Origin: Candidatus Heimdallarchaeota archaeon
Lineage (GTDB): Archaea > Asgardarchaeota > Heimdallarchaeia > Heimdallarchaeales > Kariarchaeaceae
Length of the DNA stretch: 10,707 nt
Assembly: GCA_015523565.1 (NCBI GenBank)
Contig: WAKA01000182.1
Span: 1 to 10,707 of the forward strand
Direction of reading: 5' to 3'
Made by a program: the position numbers and the translations under genes. The notes below the pieces were generated by a model. The model was not told the DNA's origin. It was given only the letters and a program-made list of their open reading frames with translations, and did no database searches. Positions 1 through 10,707 of the stretch are shown here, in pieces. Position 1 is the stretch's first letter. Each line of letters starts with the position of its first letter.

Positions 1-24
1 AACTAATGCCTCGAATTGTGGAAT

Positions 25-61
25 GTTTCAATCCTATTTCTAGGTTTTAGGCGTTCGCGAC
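25..61 (-). CRISPR. Single CRISPR-type direct repeat A (37 nt), probably the leader-proximal repeat of an array extending left beyond the window; 1-24 would be a partial spacer
   Basis: Minus strand reads GTCGCGAACGCCTAAAACCTAGAAATAGGATTGAAAC: 37 nt, canonical ATTGAAAC 3' handle, internal CCTA-N4-TAGG hairpin. It sits at the window edge, and only one copy is visible. Confidence 0.75.
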
Positions 62-202
62 TACGGGTGATTCTTCATTCTCAGACTCCCTACATAAACG
101 TTTCGAATTACGTAATGTACATTGCACTGTTTTGAACAGGGCCACTTCCAGCCACTCTCCTCCAAGAATTTTGGGGGTGATTCTAAATGCCCATATTTTC
201 AT
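62..202 (-). promoter_or_regulatory. Putative CRISPR leader with archaeal BRE/TATA promoter
   Basis: Non-coding region next to repeat A. Minus strand TTCGAAACGTTTATGT (106->91) resembles BRE (CGAAA) plus TATA about 30 nt upstream of the repeat. The 10-bp direct repeat GGGTGATTCT occurs at 65-74 and 175-184. Confidence 0.55.
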
Positions 203-952
203 TCATATCTTGATCTCTATCGGGTCAAAGTTGATGGCGTCTGCCGAAACGCAATAAATGGGGATATTTTTCACAATGAAAGGGTTGTTGATCAGGTAAG
301 TGTGCACATGGCCGCAGACAACTACGTCGGGTTTGAATTCAGCAATGAGATCCATCATCCTCTCATCAAATTCTTCCTTGTAATTTGGGTTTCCTGGATT
401 GCAGTTTGGGATTTTTGAGATTATTGCATTCCAAACTTCGTTGGTTGGGGGGAAGTGTAGCAGGACGACAAGCTTTTCCACATCCGGCAATGATTCCAGT
501 GATGTTCTCATCCGCCTCAATTCCCTGTCCAATATTTTCTCATTTTCCTCATGCCCTTTCCTTCTGCTCCATCCCCTTGTCCCTGCAATGCCAATGCCAT
601 TGACTGAATGGGAATTGTTGTGGATCAGTCGCATTGTTGATATTTCATTGTCCATGCTTTCCAAGATCCTTTTTGCCTTTCTTTCATCACTGAACAGCCT
701 GTCGTGGTTTCCTTTCACAAGGTATTTTTTTCCGGGCAGGCTTGCGAGGAATTCAAGGTCTACCATGCCGTTCTTGAGGTTGTTTGCCCAACTTATGTCT
801 CCAGGTACGAACACAATGTCATCCTTGCTGATTTTTGAGAGCCAGTTTTTTCTTGTCTTTTCCATGTGATTCTGCCAGTTTTCCCCGAACCTGTCCATTG
901 ATTTTCCTTTTGAGGATGGAAGGTGGAGGTCACTTATTGCAAAAAAGTTCAT
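203..952 (-). CDS. Calcineurin-like metallophosphoesterase (DR1119-like)
   Basis: Motifs SDLHL, PGDISW, KGNHD, LLHFPP and CGHVH. I moved the start from 994 to the ATG at 952 (MNFFAISDLH), which has a TTTTAT box about 25-30 bp upstream. Confidence 0.92.
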   Translation of the reverse strand: MNFFAISDLHLPSSKGKSMDRFGENWQNHMEKTRKNWLSKISKDDIVFVPGDISWANNLKNGMVDLEFLASLPGKKYLVKGNHDRLFSDERKAKRILESMDNEISTMRLIHNNSHSVNGIGIAGTRGWSRRKGHEENEKILDRELRRMRTSLESLPDVEKLVVLLHFPPTNEVWNAIISKIPNCNPGNPNYKEEFDERMMDLIAEFKPDVVVCGHVHTYLINNPFIVKNIPIYCVSADAINFDPIEIKI

Positions 953-1039
953 CACATATTTTTTGCTGTTGGCATTGATAAAAGCATCGGACAATTTTCA
1001 AAGCTTGGATTTTTATTTTCCCCATTCTTGATCCAATTA

Positions 1040-1603
1040 ATGCTGGATCAGGAATTGCGGGAACTTAAGGATCGCCTGTTGTCCAGGTTTCTTCCCTCTG
1101 TTCCATTTTCGCCTGCTCTGATAACTGCTTTTGGTCTTGCTGTTGGAATCGCCTCAATTGTGCTGATTTGTTTGGGGATGTTGCTTCCAGCTTTCCTGCT
1201 CTTCTTGGTAAACCGTTTCGCGGATATCGTCGATGGGGCGGTTGCAAGGCAACAGGGATCAACTTCCAAAGGTGCAATGCTTGACCTGTTCGCGGATTAT
1301 GTGATATACTTGGGTGTGCCCTTGGCAATTGCTGCCAGCTTTCCCTCTCTTCAAATTCTGGTCTCCGTAATGTTTGCGCTTTTTGTGCTCAACCTCTTGC
1401 TTTGGACTTACCCCCAACTGTTGCGTCCCATTGAATTGCCGCCCAACCAGAAATACCCTCGAAGTCTTGTCGAGGGAACAGAGACCACGATATTTTATTG
1501 CTTGTTTATCATGTTCCCTTCTGTTCCCCTGTTCCTTGTTTTCAATTTTCTATTGCTCATCACTGTACTGCATCGATTATTTCACGCGCTGTCTTCACTT
1601 TAG
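1040..1603 (+). CDS. CDP-alcohol phosphatidyltransferase family membrane protein (YnjF-like)
   Basis: Signature ADIVDGAVAR...GAMLDLFADY (DxxDGxxAR..G..D..D), hydrophobic helices and a C-terminal LVEGTET motif. ATG 1040 avoids overlap with the divergent gene and has TTTTAT at about 1011. Confidence 0.9.
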   Translation: MLDQELRELKDRLLSRFLPSVPFSPALITAFGLAVGIASIVLICLGMLLPAFLLFLVNRFADIVDGAVARQQGSTSKGAMLDLFADYVIYLGVPLAIAASFPSLQILVSVMFALFVLNLLLWTYPQLLRPIELPPNQKYPRSLVEGTETTIFYCLFIMFPSVPLFLVFNFLLLITVLHRLFHALSSL

Positions 1604-2363
1604 CAAGCTTCCGTTTTCTTTCGGCATATGAGACAACTTGTTCCTTTAAACTATTGAGAAATCCTGAATCTATGTCTGCAACGCTTTTCAAATCAGAGAA
1701 CTGCCTTGAAATCATCTCATAGATCTCTTTCCTGTCTGCAAACAAATGCTCTATTTCTGTCCTGATGAAGAACAGGATCAGGACGATTTCCTTTCCATTC
1801 AATCTCTCGTCTGCACCTTCCGCCCTGATCATGGCTTGGGCGGCAAATGAATGGTAGGCTTTACAGTTCCTTGCAGGCAATGGTCCAAAGAACCCAAGAT
1901 TGACATTGCTTTCATCTTGATTGATTTCGCCTTGACCGAGTGATGCAAACCATGTGATTGTCATATAGTCCAGAAATGCCTTCTGTTGCGTTGAATCCTG
2001 TACGAACGGGAATTTTTCATTCACTATTGTTTCTGCCCCTGTCCTGCCAAACCTTTGGATTGCAATGTAGATCATCCTTGACAGGTCTTCATTGTTTCCT
2101 GTCATTTCCCTTGGGGGGATTATGTCTTCCAATATTTCTGCATAATATTCTTCGTCAATGGGAATTTTCCAGACTATGGCAACTCCTTCCTTTCCATTTG
2201 TTTGATGTGATTTCCCGTTTTCAGCATCATTCATCCTTTTTGCGATAAGCAGGTTTCTTCTAGCCTCATTGGAAAAAATGACCTTTCCTTGCATGTTCTT
2301 AATTTCCACTGCAAAAGGGAGCTTTTGAAGAACCTGCTCCCAAGGAACTTCGCCAGTCACCAA
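1560..2363 (-). CDS. PAS-like sensor domain fused to a longin/uDENN-like (Asgard-type) C-terminal domain
   Basis: The N-terminus VLQKLPFAVEIKNMQGKVIFSNEA...WKIPI...EILEDI fits a compact PAS. The C-terminus IYIAIQRFGRTGAE...SLGQG...GFFGPLP...ADERL...LILFF resembles longin/uDENN-like domains. The start could be TTG 2363 or GTG 2360. Confidence 0.65.
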   Translation of the reverse strand: MVTGEVPWEQVLQKLPFAVEIKNMQGKVIFSNEARRNLLIAKRMNDAENGKSHQTNGKEGVAIVWKIPIDEEYYAEILEDIIPPREMTGNNEDLSRMIYIAIQRFGRTGAETIVNEKFPFVQDSTQQKAFLDYMTITWFASLGQGEINQDESNVNLGFFGPLPARNCKAYHSFAAQAMIRAEGADERLNGKEIVLILFFIRTEIEHLFADRKEIYEMISRQFSDLKSVADIDSGFLNSLKEQVVSYAERKRKLAKVKTAREIIDAVQ

Positions 2364-2940
2364 TTATATATATAAATCCCCATATTAAAAATTTCTATGA
2401 TAAAAAATTTATTTACTATACTTTACTGCACAATTATGGACAAGGCATTGATTTGCATTCCTGCAATACTCTTCCTTTAACCCACATGCCTTTTGGCAAT
2501 CCATTATTTTGAATCTGAATTAAATCCCTACAATTTAGGAATGTCATGCAACTCAAGAATCGTTGATGCAATTGTGCATGGTTTTTGTTTTCTCACTGCA
2601 ACATTCAATTCATTTCTTCATGATGCCGCCATTCGCCAACATTTTTGCAGATAATGATTTGTACATGTCACAGCAAATGAAAAGAATTTTCTTGAAGTTG
2701 GGGTTCTCTCTTCATAAGCTTCTGCTATGGGAACTGCATTTCCCCTTTCCAAACAATCCCTGACTCTGCAACCCAAACCTTGGAAGGAAACGACTCTTCT
2801 TGGGAGGTCTTTTTTGACGGCAATTGGTGTCACATTTATTCCAAACTCTAACAAAAGAAAAAAAGCATTGGAAATATCCTTTTTTCGAAAGCATGAACTA
2901 ATGCCCAAAAAAATTTAAATTTTCTAGCCCCATTTGAATC

Positions 2941-3558
2941 ATGGGAAAAACATTTGTTGTTTTTTGCACAATCCTCCTTCTACTTTCTGGCTTGTCTGCT
3001 GTAAGTGCAGAACGTTTCCAATTGGACTATTCCGTGGATATTGTTGGGTTTACCTTGCTCCCGAACGATCAAATGATGTTGGGGATGAACGTGACTGGTT
3101 ATTTCCAGAATGAAGTTGAATTCGTCAATGGCACCCAAATCTCGGGACTGATCAATTCAAGTTCAATGACATTTTCAGTTGGTTTTGAGGTCAACAGATC
3201 GTCAATCCCGCTCATCTATTCAGGTTATACTTTTTTTCTAAATGAGACGGTTCTAGTTCCTGTGAGAGTGATATTCCATTTTGCATGGAAGGTGAATGGG
3301 ACGGTGACTCGTTATCCAGGCTTCAATTTCACTCTTCCTTCTGATTTTCTTGATGAAGACGGTCAATGCCTTGGGACAGTCTCTTCACTGGCATGTGAGC
3401 GGGAATTTTCGTTTCAATATTGGAATGTGACTGCGGAATTTACCAATAATTTCTGGGATGTCCCTGAGGATTCCCCTGGCAGTGTCTTTCCCCTTCTCTT
3501 GATCCTTGGTATCCCCGTGCTTTTGATCTTTTTGGTTTACAAGTATCTTGACAGGTGA
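2941..3558 (+). CDS. Secreted, C-terminally membrane-anchored surface glycoprotein (hypothetical)
   Basis: Signal peptide MGKTFVVFCTILLLLSGLSAVSA, 8 N-x-S/T sequons, and a C-terminal SPG + TM helix + YKYLDR tail. TTTAAA lies at 2914-2919. Confidence 0.8.
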   Translation: MGKTFVVFCTILLLLSGLSAVSAERFQLDYSVDIVGFTLLPNDQMMLGMNVTGYFQNEVEFVNGTQISGLINSSSMTFSVGFEVNRSSIPLIYSGYTFFLNETVLVPVRVIFHFAWKVNGTVTRYPGFNFTLPSDFLDEDGQCLGTVSSLACEREFSFQYWNVTAEFTNNFWDVPEDSPGSVFPLLLILGIPVLLIFLVYKYLDR

Positions 3559-3662
3559 CGCTTGAAACCAGCCAATGGTCGCAATTTTGTCCAAGATAAT
3601 GCTGTTGCATATATGGTAATTCAATGGCAAAAAATTAAATTCCTACGCTTCACTTCACAATT

Positions 3663-4142
3663 ATGAACAAGAAACTGCTTGGCATTCTGCTAATCCTGTC
3701 ACTTTATCCCATCAGCCTTCTATCAATCTATCTCTTGGCACCAGATCCAAATACAGGGAATTTCCCTTCGAGATGCCCTGAGACTCCAAACTGTACACGG
3801 GTGGCTGATATAAATGTACGTGGTTATGGTCTTTCTCCTTTAACATTCAATACGTCCCTTTCATCCCTTCATGATGCAGTCGTCCAATGGATCAATGACC
3901 AACCCCGTACAACTGTTTTGGCTGATAATGGAACTTTTATCCATGCGAAATTCCTCACTGCCTTCTTTCGGTTTCCAGATGACTTCTACCTGTTCCTTTT
4001 CTGCCAAAACAACAGCGCAACACTTTGGGTACAAAGCCAATCACGTCTTGGCAAAAGTGATCTCAATGTCAATGAGGATAGGGTGCAAGCTTTCTTCTCT
4101 TATCTGTCAACTCTTTCATTGCCCCAACAGGATTGTAGCTAA
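3663..4142 (+). CDS. DUF1499 domain-containing protein
   Basis: N-terminal TM followed by CPETPNC, FIHA, FRFPDD and SQSRLGKSDLNVNEDRV motifs typical of DUF1499. Confidence 0.88.
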   Translation: MNKKLLGILLILSLYPISLLSIYLLAPDPNTGNFPSRCPETPNCTRVADINVRGYGLSPLTFNTSLSSLHDAVVQWINDQPRTTVLADNGTFIHAKFLTAFFRFPDDFYLFLFCQNNSATLWVQSQSRLGKSDLNVNEDRVQAFFSYLSTLSLPQQDCS

Positions 4143-4270
4143 TACCATTTCCCAACAGGATTGTAGCTAATACCATTTCCCAACAGGATTGCGTCTAATA
4201 CCATTTCCCAACAGGATTGCGTCTAATACCATTTCCCAACAGGATTGCGTCTAATACTATTTCCCAACAG
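4123..4270. repeat. Spacerless 28-bp tandem repeat, 5 full copies plus a partial copy
   Basis: Unit CCCAACAGGATTG(TAG/CGT)CTAATACCATTT starts at 4123, 4151, 4179, 4207 and 4235, with a partial copy at 4263. The first two copies are the TAG variant and the next three the CGT variant. Confidence 0.97.
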
Positions 4271-4272
4271 AA

Positions 4273-4665
4273 TTAGTACCATTCCCAAATGCCCAAAAGC
4301 ACACCGATGATTTCCACTACGACATAGAGCCAGAAGATATACAGCAGAGTGCCTGCAATCAATGCAAGCAATGTGATGTTGATGATGCGTGTCTTTTGCC
4401 TTTTTGCCTCATCAAGACTGCAAACCCCTTCCTTCTTATAGAAATAATATGCCAGTCCCAATAACAGTGCGACTAATGCCACTCCTCGGAATGCCCATCT
4501 GTACCCATAATACAGGGTATCGGATAGAGATGCGGCAAAGCTGACACTGCTTAGACCAAGCAAGACAAGGACAACGGGTGTGAAACAGCAAAGCCCTCCC
4601 AAAAACGCACTTATGGATAGCACTCCCTTGAGTTTCCTCAACTCATCGATTGCATTCATAAACAT
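4273..4665 (-). CDS. MerF/MerT-like heavy-metal transport membrane protein
   Basis: GLCCFTPVVLVLLG matches the vicinal-Cys first helix of MerF. There are about 3 TM segments and an extra Cys in the loop (EGVCS). An alternative start is at 4659. Confidence 0.7.
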   Translation of the reverse strand: MFMNAIDELRKLKGVLSISAFLGGLCCFTPVVLVLLGLSSVSFAASLSDTLYYGYRWAFRGVALVALLLGLAYYFYKKEGVCSLDEAKRQKTRIINITLLALIAGTLLYIFWLYVVVEIIGVLLGIWEWY

Positions 4666-4713
4666 AACTGGTTGATTATACTTATAAACAATCGGTTCCC
4701 TGAAAATGAGTCC

Positions 4714-5130
4714 TTAGTTTGCCTTATCCACCAGACGTTTCCATTCTATCTTTGGACATTTGTCCTCTATGTATAATAATCCCTTCTCTTCTGCGGCACG
4801 CCTTGCCTCTTCCGACCGAACCCCCAAAGGTAGCCAGATCAATGGAATGCCCTTTTCTGCGGCAACCTTTGCCTGCTCACCGACAATTTTCTCGTTCAGG
4901 TAGAGAATGACTCCATCAACTTTCTCATTCAAGTCTGCCAAGGAAGGAATGACTGGATCACCAAGTACCTCCTTTTCACGGGGATGAATCGGAACCAGTT
5001 TATGCCCCTTTTCCTTCAAAAATCTTGAAATCTCATTGCTTGTCCGCTCAGGCTTTGAAGAAGCACCCACAATGGCGATTTTGCGGGGCTTTGTCAAAAA
5101 CTCTATGATTTGCTCATCTGTCGCTTCCAT
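4714..5130 (-). CDS. CoA-binding protein (YccU/CoA_binding_2 family)
   Basis: Motifs KIAIVGASSKPERTS, VPIHP, SLADL..VD, IWLPLG and DKCPKIE. Confidence 0.93.
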   Translation of the reverse strand: MEATDEQIIEFLTKPRKIAIVGASSKPERTSNEISRFLKEKGHKLVPIHPREKEVLGDPVIPSLADLNEKVDGVILYLNEKIVGEQAKVAAEKGIPLIWLPLGVRSEEARRAAEEKGLLYIEDKCPKIEWKRLVDKAN

Positions 5131-5197
5131 ACTTGAATCATCCCTTGCTCTCTATAAAAATAATTCAGCTTAAGAAATTCCCTGTTCCATAAGTTTT

Positions 5198-5258
5198 GAT
5201 GAAATTTTGCCTAGACGAAATTTTGTCTCCGAAGTACGATGAATTCTTGCAATATTGC
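5198..5258. promoter_or_regulatory. Putative operator cluster in the divergent CoA-binding/pcp intergenic region
   Basis: Imperfect direct repeats GATGAAATTTTGCCT (5198), GACGAAATTTTGTCT (5214) and GATGAATTCTTGC (5238). Also a quasi-palindrome AGACGAAATTTTGTCT and a perfect palindrome GCAATATTGC at 5249-5258. Confidence 0.35.
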
Positions 5259-5310
5259 CCGATTTTCCCCCATTTCAAAAGATACATAACGTGACACACG
5301 AATATAGATT

Positions 5311-5940
5311 GTGAAGGCTCTTCTTACTGGTTTTGAACCATTCGGCGGCTATGGGACAAACCCGACGCAGATGCTTGCAGAACATTTCAACGGAATGAAC
5401 TTCCGTTCCATCTCTGTTGTCGGAAGGGTAATTGAACTCAAATATGGCACAATAAGGCATCAAATCAGGGAGCTTGTTGATGCTGTTCAACCCGATTGCA
5501 TTGTCATGACTGGACAATCCGCAAGAAACGCAATCACCCCTGAACGAATTGCCATAAATTATGCGGAATCATCTACTCCCTACAACTGTGGAACCAAAGT
5601 GGACGGTGAAATCCTCGATCCTGAAGGAGAGGACGGGCTTTTCTCAACACTCCCCCTGAAAGAAATTGTGCATGAACTAAGGAACCAAGGCATCCCATCA
5701 TATGTCTCGCTTTCCGCTGGAACCTTCGGGTGCAACCAAATATTCTATGAATGCCAACGATACCTCAAACTCAAAAACATAAACATTCCGTCAGGATTTA
5801 TTCATGTCCCTCTCCTACCTGAACAAGCAAAAAACGGGAAGTTTGCATCCATGCATTTCGACCTGATGATACGTGCATTCGAAATCGTATTCAAGATACT
5901 TGACAATGTTTGTCAATCCACGGAAATGCGACATGGATGA
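5311..5940 (+). CDS. pcp: Pyroglutamyl-peptidase I (pyrrolidone-carboxylate peptidase, C15)
   Basis: LLTGFEPFGG, PERIAIN (E78), SAGTFGCN (C141) and GFIHVP (H165) give the catalytic triad. GTG start. Confidence 0.96.
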   Translation: MKALLTGFEPFGGYGTNPTQMLAEHFNGMNFRSISVVGRVIELKYGTIRHQIRELVDAVQPDCIVMTGQSARNAITPERIAINYAESSTPYNCGTKVDGEILDPEGEDGLFSTLPLKEIVHELRNQGIPSYVSLSAGTFGCNQIFYECQRYLKLKNINIPSGFIHVPLLPEQAKNGKFASMHFDLMIRAFEIVFKILDNVCQSTEMRHG

Positions 5941-5962
5941 ATGCTCTATCCCAGAACCTGAA

Positions 5963-6012
5963 CTAAACTTCAACCAATCTCTTTCAGGACTAAACTTCAA
6001 TCTCCTTCAGGA
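5963..6012. repeat. Imperfect tandem duplication of the antitoxin gene 3' end
   Basis: CTAAACTTCAAccaaTCTCTTTCAGGA (5963-5989) versus CTAAACTTCAATCTCCTTCAGGA (5990-6012). Confidence 0.8.
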
Positions 6013-6310
6013 TTTCATCCCTTGTTCGTGATGTGTGCCTGTCCATTTCCTCAGTTATTGGGGGTTCCACGCCTGCCTCCTCAATCAGCATGAATGCCTC
6101 TGACAGTGTGAGGTTCCCTCTTTTACAAAGCTCAAGCATTCCGATTTTCCCTTCTGCATAAAGATTCAAAAGCACCTCCCGCTTCCAATTCCTAAATGCA
6201 TCCAATGTGGCTTCTCGAAATACAGTCCCCATTTGGCTTCCAACCAACTTTGTATACCACCTGAGAAATTCCACCTCTTCATTCGGAATCTTAAAGGATA
6301 TTTGTCCCAT
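5990..6310 (-). CDS. UPF0175-family putative antitoxin with N-terminal RHH-like DNA-binding segment
   Basis: QISFKIP beta strand plus helices (RHH-like). LYAEGKIGMLELCKRGNLTLSEAFMLIEEAGV resembles the UPF0175 HTH. Adjacent to a PIN gene. Confidence 0.75.
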   Translation of the reverse strand: MGQISFKIPNEEVEFLRWYTKLVGSQMGTVFREATLDAFRNWKREVLLNLYAEGKIGMLELCKRGNLTLSEAFMLIEEAGVEPPITEEMDRHTSRTRDEILKEIEV

Positions 6311-6321
6311 AAATAAAAATC

Positions 6322-6348
6322 AACCATAACCTATTTAAAAATATGGTT
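6322..6348. promoter_or_regulatory. Bidirectional TATA box flanked by an inverted-repeat operator
   Basis: AACCATA (6322-6328) N13 TATGGTT (6342-6348) encloses the palindromic TTTAAA (6334-6339), which lies about 24-26 bp from both divergent start codons (6310 and 6365). Confidence 0.65.
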
Positions 6349-6364
6349 TGAAAATCAAACATCA

Positions 6365-6847
6365 ATGCATACTTTTCTTCTAGATACCATTTCATTCGGA
6401 AAATTGATAAAATTAAATTTTCCATCCCTCTTGAATTGCTTCAATAAAAACAAAATATGCATAACACATCCTGTTTTGGATGAAATTATGCACCATTTTG
6501 GTCAAAAGGGAAGGGAATTCTCAAAACATTTCACATTACTACCATTGAGAGACTTTGATTACAGTGAATACTTCAAGTTAGGGTTGGATTACGCTGATGC
6601 ATCACTTCTTGAATACCAAATTGGTGATGAAATTATCATCTCAGAAGATCATCCACTAATTGCATATGCAACATTCCATCGAAAAAGAGCAATTCAATTG
6701 ATTGATTTTCTATTATTTTGCTCAAAGATGGGTGTTATTGACAATAAAACACTTTATCGATGCAATCATGAATTAAGAAAAATGAAAAATATCACAAAAA
6801 AAAAGCACAAGGAAGTTAAGCAATATCTTGCTGGAACAAATTATTGA
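6365..6847 (+). CDS. vapC: PIN-domain (VapC/DUF3368-like) ribonuclease toxin
   Basis: Acidic PIN tetrad LLD7T, VLDE40I, YAD78AS and SED95HPL. The gene is AT-rich. Confidence 0.82.
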   Translation: MHTFLLDTISFGKLIKLNFPSLLNCFNKNKICITHPVLDEIMHHFGQKGREFSKHFTLLPLRDFDYSEYFKLGLDYADASLLEYQIGDEIIISEDHPLIAYATFHRKRAIQLIDFLLFCSKMGVIDNKTLYRCNHELRKMKNITKKKHKEVKQYLAGTNY

Positions 6848-7010
6848 ACCATATGGGCCTTTAAGAAGCTGTTTCATATATCGTAAATAGACCCTCTGAA
6901 ACTATAAGATATTCTATCTAATAAATTGTTTAAAGAATTGCTGTAATCTAAATTTTTCTGATGTTTATCCTGCCCACACATACAAATTCTCACGTGCGGA
7001 AAATCGAAAA

Positions 7011-7085
7011 TGGGCCCACTGGGATTTGAACCCAGGACAAATCGGTTATGAGCCGACCACTCTAACCAGGCTGAGTTATGGGCCC
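7011..7085 (-). tRNA. tRNA-Ile2 (anticodon CAU, likely agmatidine-modified); tRNA-Met is the alternative call
   Basis: Full cloverleaf GGGCCCA-TA-ACTC-AGCCTGGTTA-GAGT-G-GTCGG-CTCATAA-CCGAT-TTGTC-CTGGG-TTCAAAT-CCCAG-TGGGCCC-A. The GGGCCC acceptor is typical of archaeal Ile tRNAs rather than initiator (AGC) or elongator Met (GCC). No CCA and no intron. Confidence 0.93.
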
Positions 7086-7267
7086 AAAAGATTAGGTTGA
7101 TTGGAACGAAATTCCAATTGCAATATTGATTCCATTAATAAAAAATTACCCATACGTTCGTGTGTCAATTGAAAAGATGCTGTGCCTGAATTAAAATGCC
7201 TCTGCATTTTATGTTTTATGCGTATTGTTTTTATGAATTCTTGTATTTTTTGGGTTAGGGATTTTGA

Positions 7268-10200
7268 TTGGGTTTTCGGATATATTTCTCTGGTTTTGGC
7301 TCATACGATCTTTCATCCGTTATTTTGGGAAGAGAGGATTTGAGGGATGGATTTTTGTGTTTCTTGGATGATGGATCCAATGGAGTTACATTGGCGGACA
7401 TGATTTTGCGTCGGATGGATGTTTTGTATTATCTTCAACATGGTCTTGGCAAGCAAGAGTTTATCAGGCGTTTTCAAGGTTTTTTTGGTAATTTGGATGT
7501 TAATTTGCTTGGTTCATATTATGATTTCATTGAGGGGAACAAATCAAAAGAGATCTTGTCCCGGTGTAATTCGATGGGGGATGTTATTGGATATGGTTGT
7601 GGTGGTCTTATTGGTGGTTCGGAATTGAAGTCATACGAAGGCGAGGTTGCTGAGAAGTTCTTTCTTCATTTCATTGAGCGGGAGCTTGGGTCATATTTAC
7701 TTGTTCGAGGTTTTAGGGGTGGACATCAGTATCCTGGAACCCTTTTTCTTCATGACTTTACGTTGGATGGAGATTATTTGACGGGATTGTTGTATTCATT
7801 GGGTGCTGATCGTGCAGAAGAGGTTTTGTCTCGGTGTTTAGGTGGGAGGATTGACCAAAAAGTGGGGACAGAGGGGTTTGTGTTGGATGCATTGAGGACA
7901 GAAGAGCTTGTGTTGGGTGCATTGAGGACAGCTTTGGTTCTTATCAAGCGTCATTCTTTGGATGTGAATGGGATAAGTTCTGGGAGTGATCGGATGACCC
8001 TTGTTGTTCCCATTGATGGCGTTCCAAAGGATGATGTGATGGGTTGTCTGGTAAACTATTTCATTGATGAGGTCTTTAGTCATGGTTTTCTCAACACGAT
8101 TGATGAATACAAGATCACATTTTCGCGTTATCTTGATGATCGGTTGGTGTTGATTCCTGCGGATCGTGTATTGGATGCATGTAACGAGAACACATTGGAA
8201 ATTTTTGGCAGGTTAAGTGATTACCCTGAATTGTTGCGTTCTGGCGATGATTCCCGTGTTTTTCTTCCCAGTGTTGGCTTGGGTCGTTTGGACAAGCTGG
8301 GTCGAGACTGGTTGAAACTAAAGAATGAGTTGGGTGTAAATGACTTATTTACACGTGGATTTGAAGCGACGGATGAATTGAAATTGGCATTGGCCAAGAG
8401 GAATTTTGGTGTTGGCACTCTTTCGAAGTTGTCGTCAGGGGATTTGGTTACGGTTGAAAGGGTGATTTCGGGTTTTGTGCGAAAGATGGAAAATTCAATT
8501 GCCCAACACCAGATTATTGAGTTCATGCGTAGTGGCCGTTGGTTTGATCCAAAGGATTTGGGGCTTGGTTTTAGCCAAATAAGGTCCACAAAGGTTGCGT
8601 TGGAAACAGGTCTGATGAAATTGACACACTATTCGGATTTGGTTCAAGTAAAGGTGGGTGACAAAGTTTCAATATTGAATGGGGAAACCCCTGTTCCTGA
8701 AAAAATGGGTGGTGCCGTCCCTGTCAAGGTAATGGGGGTTGACGGAGTGTTCATTGAAGGTTTCATCATATTGCTTCCGTTGATGGATTGCGATGGACGG
8801 CAATATATCGGCATAGTGGATCGTGACAGTTTTTTTGCACCTCATGAGGTTTCTGGGGATACAAGGTTAGGTATAACAAAATTTTTGGAGGGGGATCTGG
8901 TCAAGTATTTTGACAACTTGGACTTGTTTTCGACAGTTATTGAGACTGCATCCTTGGAAACTATATGGCAGTTCAGGAGATATCAGGAGAAAGTATACAA
9001 TTTGGTTTTCCAGACACCTGGTCAGGGTCATTGCAGTAATTTCTTATTTGGCAGGTGGATGCCTGAGCAGTCCTTTCTCACTTACGCAGGTGTTCCGGAA
9101 AATGAGGTTTTTCGGCTTTTAAAACGGCTTGGGCATGACTATCCCGTTACATTCAACCATGTTCGGTCGTTTGGGATTTCCAAACTAAATCTGAAGTGGA
9201 TGGAAGGTATTGAGTTTCATGCTTGGAAGAAAATCATGGAGGTAAGTATCGTTCCCGCGACTGAACATTTGGAGGGCTGTCCATCCCGTTATAGGACAAT
9301 TGCAAGGGTTGGCAATCTGGTTGAATATACGAACCATGCAGTTCCTTCTGGCTGCACCCAAAGTGCAATTGGATTCATTAGGCATTTGGTTCCAAAGGCT
9401 CAGGCTGGAAATTTTATCAAAGGCAATCAACTTGATATTTCAAAACTACAGGAAACTAGTGTGGATACAGTCTTGAAATGGTTTGAAACACTTCCGCAAG
9501 CCCATCGATCGTTTCCCAACCTTGATTTGCCGAGTCCACTTGCAGGGAGCACAGCAGATATTTTTTCAGGTCAGGTGGTTCCCACATCCCTTATTGAGGT
9601 GGTTGAGGTGGTATTGGACGAGATTTCCATTATTTACGTCCCTTATAGACCTCCTACTGGCACAATGCGGGACAAATCCCTCAACAACAATGTAAAACTC
9701 AATGAAACCTTGGCACGTCGTCTTCTCCAAAGATTGGGCAATGAAGGGAAGCAAATCGATTTTCTTGGTCTATATTTCCACGAGATAGGGCAGTACATCA
9801 CAATTCCCGAAATGGAAGGGTATGCAGGACGTGTTCTATTCAATGAATTGAAAAGGGTGGCGGCAGGCGATGTGGAGAATCTTATGGAATTTCATTTCAA
9901 GGAAGAATACACGCACCTCAAAAATGTCTTCATCTGGTTTGATCCTGAAAAGATAGATGAACCACAAGGGGAACAATTTACAATTCTTGACTTGAGAATC
10001 TTGCCTGGTCAATTTTTAACACATCCTGGGCATATCGACCCGATATTTTCAGGAACCCGTCATGTCGGTGGGAAACGATATTTGGAAATGACATCCATTT
10101 ACAAGAACAGATCCCTTTTTGAGAGGAAAATGCATTATTGGCTTGAAGCACAGCTTCGACGTATCTTATGCAGGCTAACCCTTGATGAAAACCTTTTCTA

Positions 10201-10630
10201 CCAAAACTATACCGCTTGGAAAAAAACAAAGATTGGTGGGTTGTCCAATGCCTATAAGGGCGGTCGGATTGATCGGCTGTTTTCAGACAGGCTGATACTT
10301 GAATTAGTCAAGAGATATTTGGCTCCTGGTTGTACATTGGGTTATGACCTGAAAAAGAGCAAAGTGATGATCAGACGTGCCCATGATGAAAGGGTATTTA
10401 GAAGCGGGACTTTTCTGACCCCCGTCTTCCTTGATGACAGTTTGGCAGTTGATTTAGAGAGGGATACGTCAGGGGGTACGATAGCATTGGCAAATTATGG
10501 AAAGCTGTTGGAGGAAGCCATTGCAAAAATTCCGAAAGAAGATGTTGAAGGAATGGCAACTGCCATCCCCGATTTTTTGGCTCCTTTCACTTTCCGACGC
10601 ATAAAAGTACTTTTTGAGAACCATTTCTGA
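7268..10630 (+). CDS. Large hypothetical protein (1120 aa) with candidate tandem PD-(D/E)xK nuclease-like modules, adjacent to a CRISPR repeat
   Basis: Uninterrupted 3.36-kb ORF with no signal peptide, clear TM segment or P-loop. Candidate motif sets are E129/D163/D196-Q-K198 and E960/D1002/D1027-L-K1029. The start is uncertain (TTG 7268 or ATG 7400). Confidence 0.75.
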   Translation: MGFRIYFSGFGSYDLSSVILGREDLRDGFLCFLDDGSNGVTLADMILRRMDVLYYLQHGLGKQEFIRRFQGFFGNLDVNLLGSYYDFIEGNKSKEILSRCNSMGDVIGYGCGGLIGGSELKSYEGEVAEKFFLHFIERELGSYLLVRGFRGGHQYPGTLFLHDFTLDGDYLTGLLYSLGADRAEEVLSRCLGGRIDQKVGTEGFVLDALRTEELVLGALRTALVLIKRHSLDVNGISSGSDRMTLVVPIDGVPKDDVMGCLVNYFIDEVFSHGFLNTIDEYKITFSRYLDDRLVLIPADRVLDACNENTLEIFGRLSDYPELLRSGDDSRVFLPSVGLGRLDKLGRDWLKLKNELGVNDLFTRGFEATDELKLALAKRNFGVGTLSKLSSGDLVTVERVISGFVRKMENSIAQHQIIEFMRSGRWFDPKDLGLGFSQIRSTKVALETGLMKLTHYSDLVQVKVGDKVSILNGETPVPEKMGGAVPVKVMGVDGVFIEGFIILLPLMDCDGRQYIGIVDRDSFFAPHEVSGDTRLGITKFLEGDLVKYFDNLDLFSTVIETASLETIWQFRRYQEKVYNLVFQTPGQGHCSNFLFGRWMPEQSFLTYAGVPENEVFRLLKRLGHDYPVTFNHVRSFGISKLNLKWMEGIEFHAWKKIMEVSIVPATEHLEGCPSRYRTIARVGNLVEYTNHAVPSGCTQSAIGFIRHLVPKAQAGNFIKGNQLDISKLQETSVDTVLKWFETLPQAHRSFPNLDLPSPLAGSTADIFSGQVVPTSLIEVVEVVLDEISIIYVPYRPPTGTMRDKSLNNNVKLNETLARRLLQRLGNEGKQIDFLGLYFHEIGQYITIPEMEGYAGRVLFNELKRVAAGDVENLMEFHFKEEYTHLKNVFIWFDPEKIDEPQGEQFTILDLRILPGQFLTHPGHIDPIFSGTRHVGGKRYLEMTSIYKNRSLFERKMHYWLEAQLRRILCRLTLDENLFYQNYTAWKKTKIGGLSNAYKGGRIDRLFSDRLILELVKRYLAPGCTLGYDLKKSKVMIRRAHDERVFRSGTFLTPVFLDDSLAVDLERDTSGGTIALANYGKLLEEAIAKIPKEDVEGMATAIPDFLAPFTFRRIKVLFENHF
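7866..7931 (+). repeat. In-frame 30-bp tandem duplication within the large ORF
   Basis: GGACAGAGGGGTTTGTGTTGGATGCATTGA and GGACAGAAGAGCTTGTGTTGGGTGCATTGA are 26/30 identical and encode TEGFVLDALR and TEELVLGALR. Confidence 0.9.
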
Positions 10631-10668
10631 ACAAATCCAATAATTTTAGGGGATAAATCATAAAACTC

Positions 10669-10705
10669 GTTTCAACCTAATTCTAGGATTCTCACTCAAT
10701 GAGAC
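10669..10705 (-). CRISPR. Single CRISPR-type direct repeat B (37 nt), probably the trailer-end repeat of a second array extending right beyond the window
   Basis: Minus strand reads GTCTCATTGAGTGAGAATCCTAGAATTAGGTTGAAAC: 37 nt, TTGAAAC 3' end, CCTA-N4-TAGG hairpin. About 22 nt are homologous to repeat A. It sits at the window edge, and only one copy is visible. Confidence 0.7.
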
Positions 10706-10707
10706 GT

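Follow-up and report, generated by a model that had tools for sequence, protein, structure and literature searches.

The present analysis concerns a 10,707-nucleotide (nt) stretch of DNA (the window), which constitutes the whole of contig C182 (positions 1-10707) of a metagenome-assembled genome (MAG) from the Heimdall group of the Asgard archaea; the genome bin comprises 3.57 Mb in 233 contigs. The window is bracketed by two different clustered regularly interspaced short palindromic repeats (CRISPR). We consider it very likely that its ends are the edges of two genuine CRISPR arrays, inside whose repeats the short-read assembly stopped, and that an ordinary chromosomal segment lies between these same-strand arrays, with array B upstream and array A downstream on the minus strand. 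The two 37-mers were found in the same orientation on the plus strand, exactly where an initial annotation of the window had placed them: repeat A (GTTTCAATCCTATTTCTAGGTTTTAGGCGTTCGCGAC) at 25-61, 24 nt from the left contig end, and repeat B (GTTTCAACCTAATTCTAGGATTCTCACTCAATGAGAC) at 10669-10705, 2 nt from the right contig end. The elements assigned to the arrays are the following.

1-24, minus strand: partial first (leader-proximal) spacer of the A array, beyond repeat A, cut by the contig end
25-61, minus strand: CRISPR repeat of family A, sense sequence GTCGCGAACGCCTAAAACCTAGAAATAGGATTGAAAC, first repeat of an array running off the left contig end
62-202, minus strand: A-array leader of 141 nt, reaching from the first repeat to the stop codon of a metallophosphoesterase gene, with a conserved core at 62-179
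10669-10705, minus strand: CRISPR repeat of family B, sense sequence GTCTCATTGAGTGAGAATCCTAGAATTAGGTTGAAAC, last (trailer-end) repeat of an array entering from the right contig end

The evidence from the remainder of the genome showed that both 37-mers belong to arrays. With up to three mismatches allowed, 30 copies of repeat A and 23 of repeat B were found in the genome, and reversed control patterns yielded none. Looser matching raised these numbers to 36 copies of family A on six contigs (C4, C143, C173, C182, C211 and C219) and 28 copies of family B on four (C65, C137, C182 and C211). Arrays of exact A copies were present on C143 and C211 (12 copies), and C173, C219 and C4 carry near-identical variants; exact B arrays were present on C137 (17 copies) and C65, and a variant, B', on C211. 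The spacers in these arrays were unique and 34-40 nt long. In a CRISPR array, direct repeats of 23-55 nt alternate regularly with unique spacers that are about as long, and this arrangement was seen in the A and B arrays elsewhere in the genome as well as in public contigs with a repeat-spacer-repeat structure. The initial annotation, which had taken both sequences for CRISPR repeats, had staked this interpretation on further copies of each separated by unique spacers; such copies were thus recovered from the genome and the public contigs alike. Two more repeat families were identified in the bin, namely C (on C76, C78 and C181) and the 30-nt D (on C49 and C197).

The CRISPR RNA (crRNA) sense is the minus strand, in which the repeats read ...ATTGAAAC. 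On C4, C65, C143 and C181, the mutated terminal repeats were those farthest downstream when the array is read in the ...TTGAAAC orientation. The seemingly degenerate last repeat on C78 was rejected as evidence of polarity, as this repeat is truncated by a Nextera adaptor. The same adaptor (CTGTCTCTTATACACATCT) was noted at 16 contig ends of the bin, including C78:9233-9284, and adaptor stubs formed loose ends in the public contigs too. The polarity is also set by a conserved leader, which in the window extends over 62-179: this core was identical in 117 of 118 nt to the leader of the 12-repeat A array on C211, and the two sequences diverged beyond it. The A leader also showed 81-83% identity over 120 nt to two leaders of A' arrays (near-identical to A) on C173, which flank cas1-cas2-cas4. 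Since their first spacers differ, the A arrays of C182 and C211 are separate arrays with a duplicated leader; the 24-nt spacer stub of the window (1-24) was unlike the first spacers of other A-type arrays and had no exact match in viral contigs. A TATA-like element (TTTATGTA) at 98-91, 30 nt upstream of repeat A, is a putative leader promoter. The A and B leaders had a common repeat-proximal core, TTAT(G)TAGGGAG(T/G)CTGA(G/A)AAT (z score 4.1; none of 500 shuffles was as good), which was absent from the C-type leaders in this comparison. No similarity was detected among the trailer flanks of seven array ends plus that of the same-genus genome G044. The B repeat of the window is the trailer end of a B array. 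The degeneration that is frequent, not obligatory, in trailer repeats was missing from it, as the repeat is perfect. Read along the minus strand, the order is therefore the end of the B array (10705-10669), approximately 10.6 kb of genes, the leader (202-62), repeat A (61-25) and the spacer stub.

The public data were checked on Logan contigs from four runs of one study, labelled as hydrothermal vent metagenome; one of these runs, X1, may be the source. The summed contig depth reached 803 and 1073 in the two end bins of the window versus 16-57 inside it. In many contigs, position 61 was joined to position 25, or position 10705 to position 10669, across unique inserts of 33-38 nt, and these inserts varied from sample to sample. 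Because of this pile-up and the repeat-to-repeat joints at both ends, the assembly is concluded to have broken inside the repeats, in agreement with the earlier proposal that the segment sits between two distinct arrays at which assembly broke.

Several observations weigh against this reading. The window holds a single copy of each repeat family plus the 24-nt stub, and all four public runs consist of DNA contigs; the multi-spacer continuation at the ends of C182 itself is one that we infer from the stub, the contig pile-up and the arrays elsewhere. The two B trailer ends (C65 and C182) are matched by a single B leader, on C137, so that one array end is unassembled. The trailer repeat of the window is perfect, while other trailer ends are mutated, which hints that a recent truncation or rearrangement may have occurred at this junction. 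Furthermore, the repeat-containing public contigs are not assignable to a single locus; together with the perfect repeat B at 10669 and the mere 2 nt beyond it, this would also fit one or both terminal 37-mers being solitary repeats, at which the contig ends only through the multi-copy nature of the repeat, and solitary repeats do occur in this genome (C78:2339-2375 and C173:2087-2123). However, the left repeat carries a full conserved leader on one side and 24 nt of unique, spacer-like sequence on the other, a contig from run X2 continues for 255 nt beyond position 10706, and more trailer ends than leaders have been assembled for family B, from which it follows that the assembly still lacks array ends. 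We therefore regard solitary repeats as a very improbable source of the contig ends.

The two repeats had been described as sharing one half, with a hairpin and a common processing end, and this description held. On the minus strand, both form the 4-bp hairpin CCUA-N4-UAGG, followed by AUUGAAAC in A or UUGAAAC in B; the sense strand of A ends in CCTAGAAATAGG-ATTGAAAC and that of B in CCTAGAATTAGG-TTGAAAC, which is one nt shorter. The repeat end ATTGAAA(C/G) after a short hairpin, typical of Cas6-type repeats, was thus present. The energy of the hairpin alone was no better than that of shuffled sequences (z -0.5 and -1.0). The 3' half of A and B, comprising the hairpin and the handle, is common to both, and the 5' 17 nt differ. 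At the equivalent position, the stem of family C is a different one (TCTAGA). Among the other 46 genomes of the order, no copy of repeat A was found with up to three mismatches, and repeat B was present in two same-genus genomes only (26 and 45 copies). The B-type repeats of these two genomes have the A-type loop (GAAA) and are intermediate between A and B. Because of these relatives, the common 3' half and the common leader core, A and B look like sister array families, judging from the sequences. Within the window, a search of Rfam at the gathering threshold returned only the tRNA and no CRISPR-DR family, and the 20-mer of hairpin plus handle from A had no exact match in 185,579 species genomes, from which its own genome was possibly excluded.

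The cas loci are situated on other contigs of the bin. The genome encodes Cas1, Cas2, Cas4, Cas6, Cas3, Cas5, Cas7b, Cas8b, Cas10 and RAMP proteins; the cas search that the initial annotation had recommended for the bin resolved them into type I-B operons on C65 and C4, a Cas1-Cas2-Cas4 module on C173 and type III modules. An effector operon beside an array, which marks a type I-B locus, was found on both C65 and C4, and no such gene lies in the window. On C65, genes for Cas8b (E 4.9e-21), Cas7b of the Cst2/DevR type (E 1.4e-32), Cas5 (Pfam, E 1.1e-6), Cas3 with HD plus helicase domains (Cas3_HD, DEAD and Cas3-like_C_2) and Cas6 (E 4.4e-17) lie immediately before the trailer end of a B array. 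On C4, genes for Cas7b of the Csh2 type (E 8.5e-68), Cas5b (E 1.8e-35), Cas3b (E 1.3e-135) and Cas6 (E 8.2e-15) precede the trailer end of an A' array; these four genes are the part of the operon that the analysis covered. The Cas6 proteins of the two operons were only 18% identical and the Cas3 proteins 28% identical over part of their length, which excludes a recent duplication. The genome thus carries two old, distinct, co-resident type I-B systems, and each repeat family is tied to its own operon and Cas6. Of the two alternatives left open by the initial annotation, it is accordingly the one with two co-resident systems that is borne out, with A' linked to C4 and B linked to C65.

C173 carries an A'-type array with its leader at both ends. 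Between these arrays are a flavin monooxygenase gene, a solitary repeat, cas1, a second cas1-like gene, cas2 and cas4, the last of which is immediately upstream of the right-hand A' leader. The adaptation module (C173:2232-4990) contains a clear minus-strand Cas1 (TIGR00287, E 1.8e-40), an unassigned 287-aa (amino acid) gene and then the Cas1-like gene, which is divergent (332 aa, E 3e-6) and lies upstream of cas2-cas4. The solitary repeat, between the flavin monooxygenase gene and cas1, is of A type with 4 mismatches. In the genome as a whole, Cas1 was found on four contigs (C76, C49, C12 and C173), Cas6 on C65, C4, C49 and C14, and Cas10 and RAMP genes, representing type III modules, on the array-less contigs C71, C223 and C195. 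The layout of the window recurs on C211, where divergently transcribed B' and A arrays bracket 7.8 kb of non-cas genes encoding a KaiC-like ATPase, a sulfurtransferase, a major facilitator superfamily (MFS) transporter and a hydrolase.

Based on these elements, the leader promoter would drive synthesis of a precursor crRNA, which a Cas6 would cut at the base of the CCUA-N4-UAGG hairpin, leaving an (A)UUGAAAC handle. The resulting crRNAs would be loaded into type I-B and possibly also type III complexes. The adaptation module may extend the arrays remote from cas genes in trans, through their conserved leaders.

A few spacers in the bin matched sequences of the bin itself. In the five-repeat B' array on C211, one spacer matched 34 of 36 nt within the cas3 gene of the C65 operon (C65:3868-3903; 5' flank CCG), so that a cas gene of a system that is co-resident or closely related is represented among the spacers of one array. 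A spacer of the C array on C181 had a perfect protospacer (39/39 nt) at C144:4383-4421, preceded by TTC, which is a classical type I-B protospacer-adjacent motif (PAM). C144, a 5.4-kb contig occupied mostly by one open reading frame (ORF) of 1245 aa, probably represents a provirus or mobile element that was binned together with its host. The B spacer at C137:11579-11615 and the A spacer at C211:10409-10445 overlapped in opposite orientation over 31 of 33 nt, which indicates that both systems sampled the same invader; their common core had no exact match in viral contigs.

The ORFs of the window were compared with Pfam, NCBIfam and PADLOC models. Consistent with the initial annotation, which had recognised no cas gene between the repeats, none of these ORFs fitted any cas model. 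The segment contains twelve features, none of them cas, as listed below.

203-994, minus strand: metallophosphoesterase (calcineurin-like), not cas (Pfam PF00149, E 2.3e-14)
923-1603, plus strand: CDP-alcohol phosphatidyltransferase, membrane lipid synthesis (Pfam PF01066, E 2e-10)
1560-2363, minus strand: 267-aa protein, no match in Pfam, NCBIfam or PADLOC
2941-3558, plus strand: 205-aa protein with hydrophobic N- and C-terminal segments according to its translation, no Pfam, NCBIfam or PADLOC match
3663-4142, plus strand: DUF1499 protein (Pfam)
4273-4665, minus strand: MerT-like membrane protein (Pfam)
4714-5130, minus strand: CoA-binding protein (Pfam)
5311-5940, plus strand: pyroglutamyl peptidase (Pfam PF01470, E 1.4e-45)
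5990-6310, minus strand: RelB/ribbon-helix-helix-like gene of 106 aa, weak matches (NCBIfam RelB_antitoxin, E 6.8e-4; Pfam DUF6290, E 5.5e-3)
6365-6847, plus strand: 160-aa gene, divergent partner of the RelB-like gene, no NCBIfam or PADLOC match
7010-7086, minus strand: tRNA-Met (CAT) (ARAGORN; Rfam RF00005, 66.7 bits)
7268-10630, plus strand: 1120-aa orphan ORF, no Pfam, NCBIfam, PADLOC or PDB match

The metallophosphoesterase gene, which adjoins the A leader upstream, also gave a weak PADLOC match to the candidate defence family PDC-S10 (E 6.9e-10), which may reflect the generic phosphoesterase fold only. The DUF1499, MerT-like and CoA-binding genes (3663-5130) are also adjacent on contig C7 of the same-genus genome G046, with 59-91% amino acid identity and no array or orphan ORF nearby; owing to this synteny, the middle of the window is regarded as ordinary chromosome. 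Otherwise, synteny with same-genus genomes was limited to patchy matches of 65-82% nucleotide identity, and the near-closed G045 gave short matches only, onto which the array positions could not be projected.

The 1120-aa ORF at the right end of the window deserved separate consideration as an effector or accessory protein of a new cas kind, acting with the adjacent B array. It stops 38 nt from repeat B and has no family in the databases listed above. It has five paralogues in the genome (on C148, C219, C78, C50 and C102), with 27-41% identity and family protein lengths of approximately 1,100-1,180 aa. The C78 paralogue begins 349 nt from the solitary C-type repeat and lies 2.9 kb from the C array, and CRISPR repeats are present on 3 of the 6 paralogue contigs versus 13 of the 233 contigs overall. 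However, a repeat adjoins only two copies (C182 and C78); the contigs C148, C50 and C102 contain no CRISPR repeat, and that on C219 is 22 kb away. The steady partner of the family is instead a tRNA gene, found within 700 nt of five of the six paralogues (Met, Met, Glu and two intron-containing tRNAs). In the window, the ORF lies at the trailer end and on the opposite strand, with neither a leader nor a cas operon next to it. No homologue of the ORF was found in G044, in spite of its 26 B-type repeats, and the complete B-type locus on G046:C69 has no such gene between its arrays. Thus, the 1120-aa ORF is probably not a hidden cas gene, and we give very little credence to the proposal of an unrecognised effector. 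The gene is tRNA-associated, lineage-specific and probably mobile, and it merely neighbours the array. A genome-wide clustering of tRNA genes with CRISPR was also considered and rejected, as a repeat was present within 6 kb of only 3 of the 38 tRNAs, which is near chance; this, too, speaks against a functional tie between the ORF and the arrays. On C78, the solitary repeat is located 63 nt downstream of a tRNA-Glu gene, in the same orientation, beside the paralogue.

Further searches with the 1120-aa ORF returned only 10 matches among 1.84 billion representative proteins. The family is restricted to the genus, and of the 47 genomes of the order, 2 had homologues, the copies in G046 being fragmented. 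An alignment of the six paralogues contained invariant columns that included D241 and E280-x-K282, and these residues would fit a putative PD-(D/E)xK nuclease motif. The AlphaFold2 model based on this alignment was poor, with a mean predicted local distance difference test (pLDDT) of 41 and a predicted template modelling score (pTM) of 0.26. An ESM Atlas feature search with the ORF gave nothing usable, and a PDB profile search gave nucleoporin noise only (E 0.12). Aloposons, which are transposons at tRNA sites, consist of tandem genes for proteins of 3,000-6,000 aa and four upstream genes, including one for a ParA-like ATPase (PMC8813620). The 1120-aa gene resembles these and other Heimdall mobile elements in adjoining a tRNA gene, but it is a single gene whose upstream neighbours are the tRNA-Met and a small gene pair, and it has none of the tandem giant genes or the four upstream genes of an aloposon. 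A tentative suggestion, to which we assign a low probability, is that a recent insertion zone makes up the right third of the window, comprising the small gene pair, tRNA-Met, the 1120-aa gene and the perfect B repeat; there, a tRNA-seeking selfish gene of this genus-specific family would have landed between the tRNA and the B array and truncated the latter. Such a landing would explain both the undamaged trailer repeat and the C78 paralogue beside a solitary repeat and tRNA-Glu. If this were general, a new integrase-less mobile gene of Asgard archaea would use array ends by tRNA genes as landing pads.

The continuity of the window was assessed in the public runs. Independent unitigs of run X1 tile positions 125-10655 with overlaps of approximately 30 nt at an even depth of 16-33, apart from gaps at 4153-4258 and (a small one) 10482-10503, and contigs of run X2 span most of the window at 95-100% identity; the region 5713-6783 had little or no contig cover in run X2, a hole that proves nothing and was not used. 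Although the source is a metagenome bin of 233 contigs whose adaptor-bearing ends betray imperfect assembly hygiene, this tiling, the GC content (41.6% in the window versus 38.6% in the genome), the paralogues of the large ORF on five other contigs of the bin and the syntenic central gene block make a chimera between two organisms, or between the flanks of two unrelated arrays, the least probable of the explanations considered.

The edges of two CRISPR arrays around an ordinary chromosomal segment, as concluded for the window, are real but routine, and the window is another instance of a known Heimdall pattern. The closed genomes of Ca. Heimdallarchaeum endolithica and H. aukensis contain seven CRISPR-Cas systems, among them one operon without an array and one orphan array; some of the systems adjoin tRNA genes, the loci vary strongly among relatives and viral databases contained no match to the spacers (Wu et al. 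2022; PMC8813620). The present genome is similar in its order, its hydrothermal-vent habitat and its several co-resident CRISPR-Cas systems. It differs in belonging to another family of the order and in being fragmented into contigs, so that array numbers and linkage are only partly known. A counterpart to the layout of the window, in its classical form, was found on G046:C69, where two B-type arrays of the same orientation, with a repeat 2-3 nt off B, bracket approximately 12 kb. There, the bracketed ORFs mirror the cas6-cas3-cas5-cas7-cas8 genes of C65 plus further genes, by size and order only, whereas in the window non-cas genes lie between arrays of two different repeat families.

Arrays with conserved leaders at sites remote from cas genes are standard in archaea, and so is the use of one system for several arrays. 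In Haloferax volcanii, for example, three arrays of a type I-B system are served by one Cas6 and Cascade, and Methanocaldococcus jannaschii has many dispersed arrays far from cas genes. The systems described here share with archaeal type I-B the Cas8b-Cas7b-Cas5-Cas3-Cas6 set, leaders that are conserved at arrays remote from cas genes, repeats of 37 nt that contain a small hairpin and have a ...ATTGAAAC 3' end, from which an 8-nt 5' handle is predicted, spacers of 34-40 nt, and a TTC (the putative PAM) 5' of the sole perfect protospacer found. In contrast, two deeply diverged operons coexist here (Csh2-type versus Cst2/DevR-type Cas7; Cas6 18% identical), and each has its own repeat family, yet the hairpin-plus-handle half of the repeats and the leader core are common to both.

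CRISPR arrays at contig ends are the commonest cause of stops in short-read assembly, and the finding in its initial form, two repeats at the ends of a contig, matters very little. The 1120-aa orphan gene can be dropped as a cas candidate. The arrays of this MAG have now been oriented and sorted into four repeat families with linked cas modules, which allows their spacers to be used correctly in matching to viruses or hosts. The A/B pair is a natural test case, in which two type I-B systems with unrelated-looking Cas6 proteins have the same hairpin-plus-handle half in their repeats, and this common half could reflect the sharing of crRNAs by the array-less type III modules.

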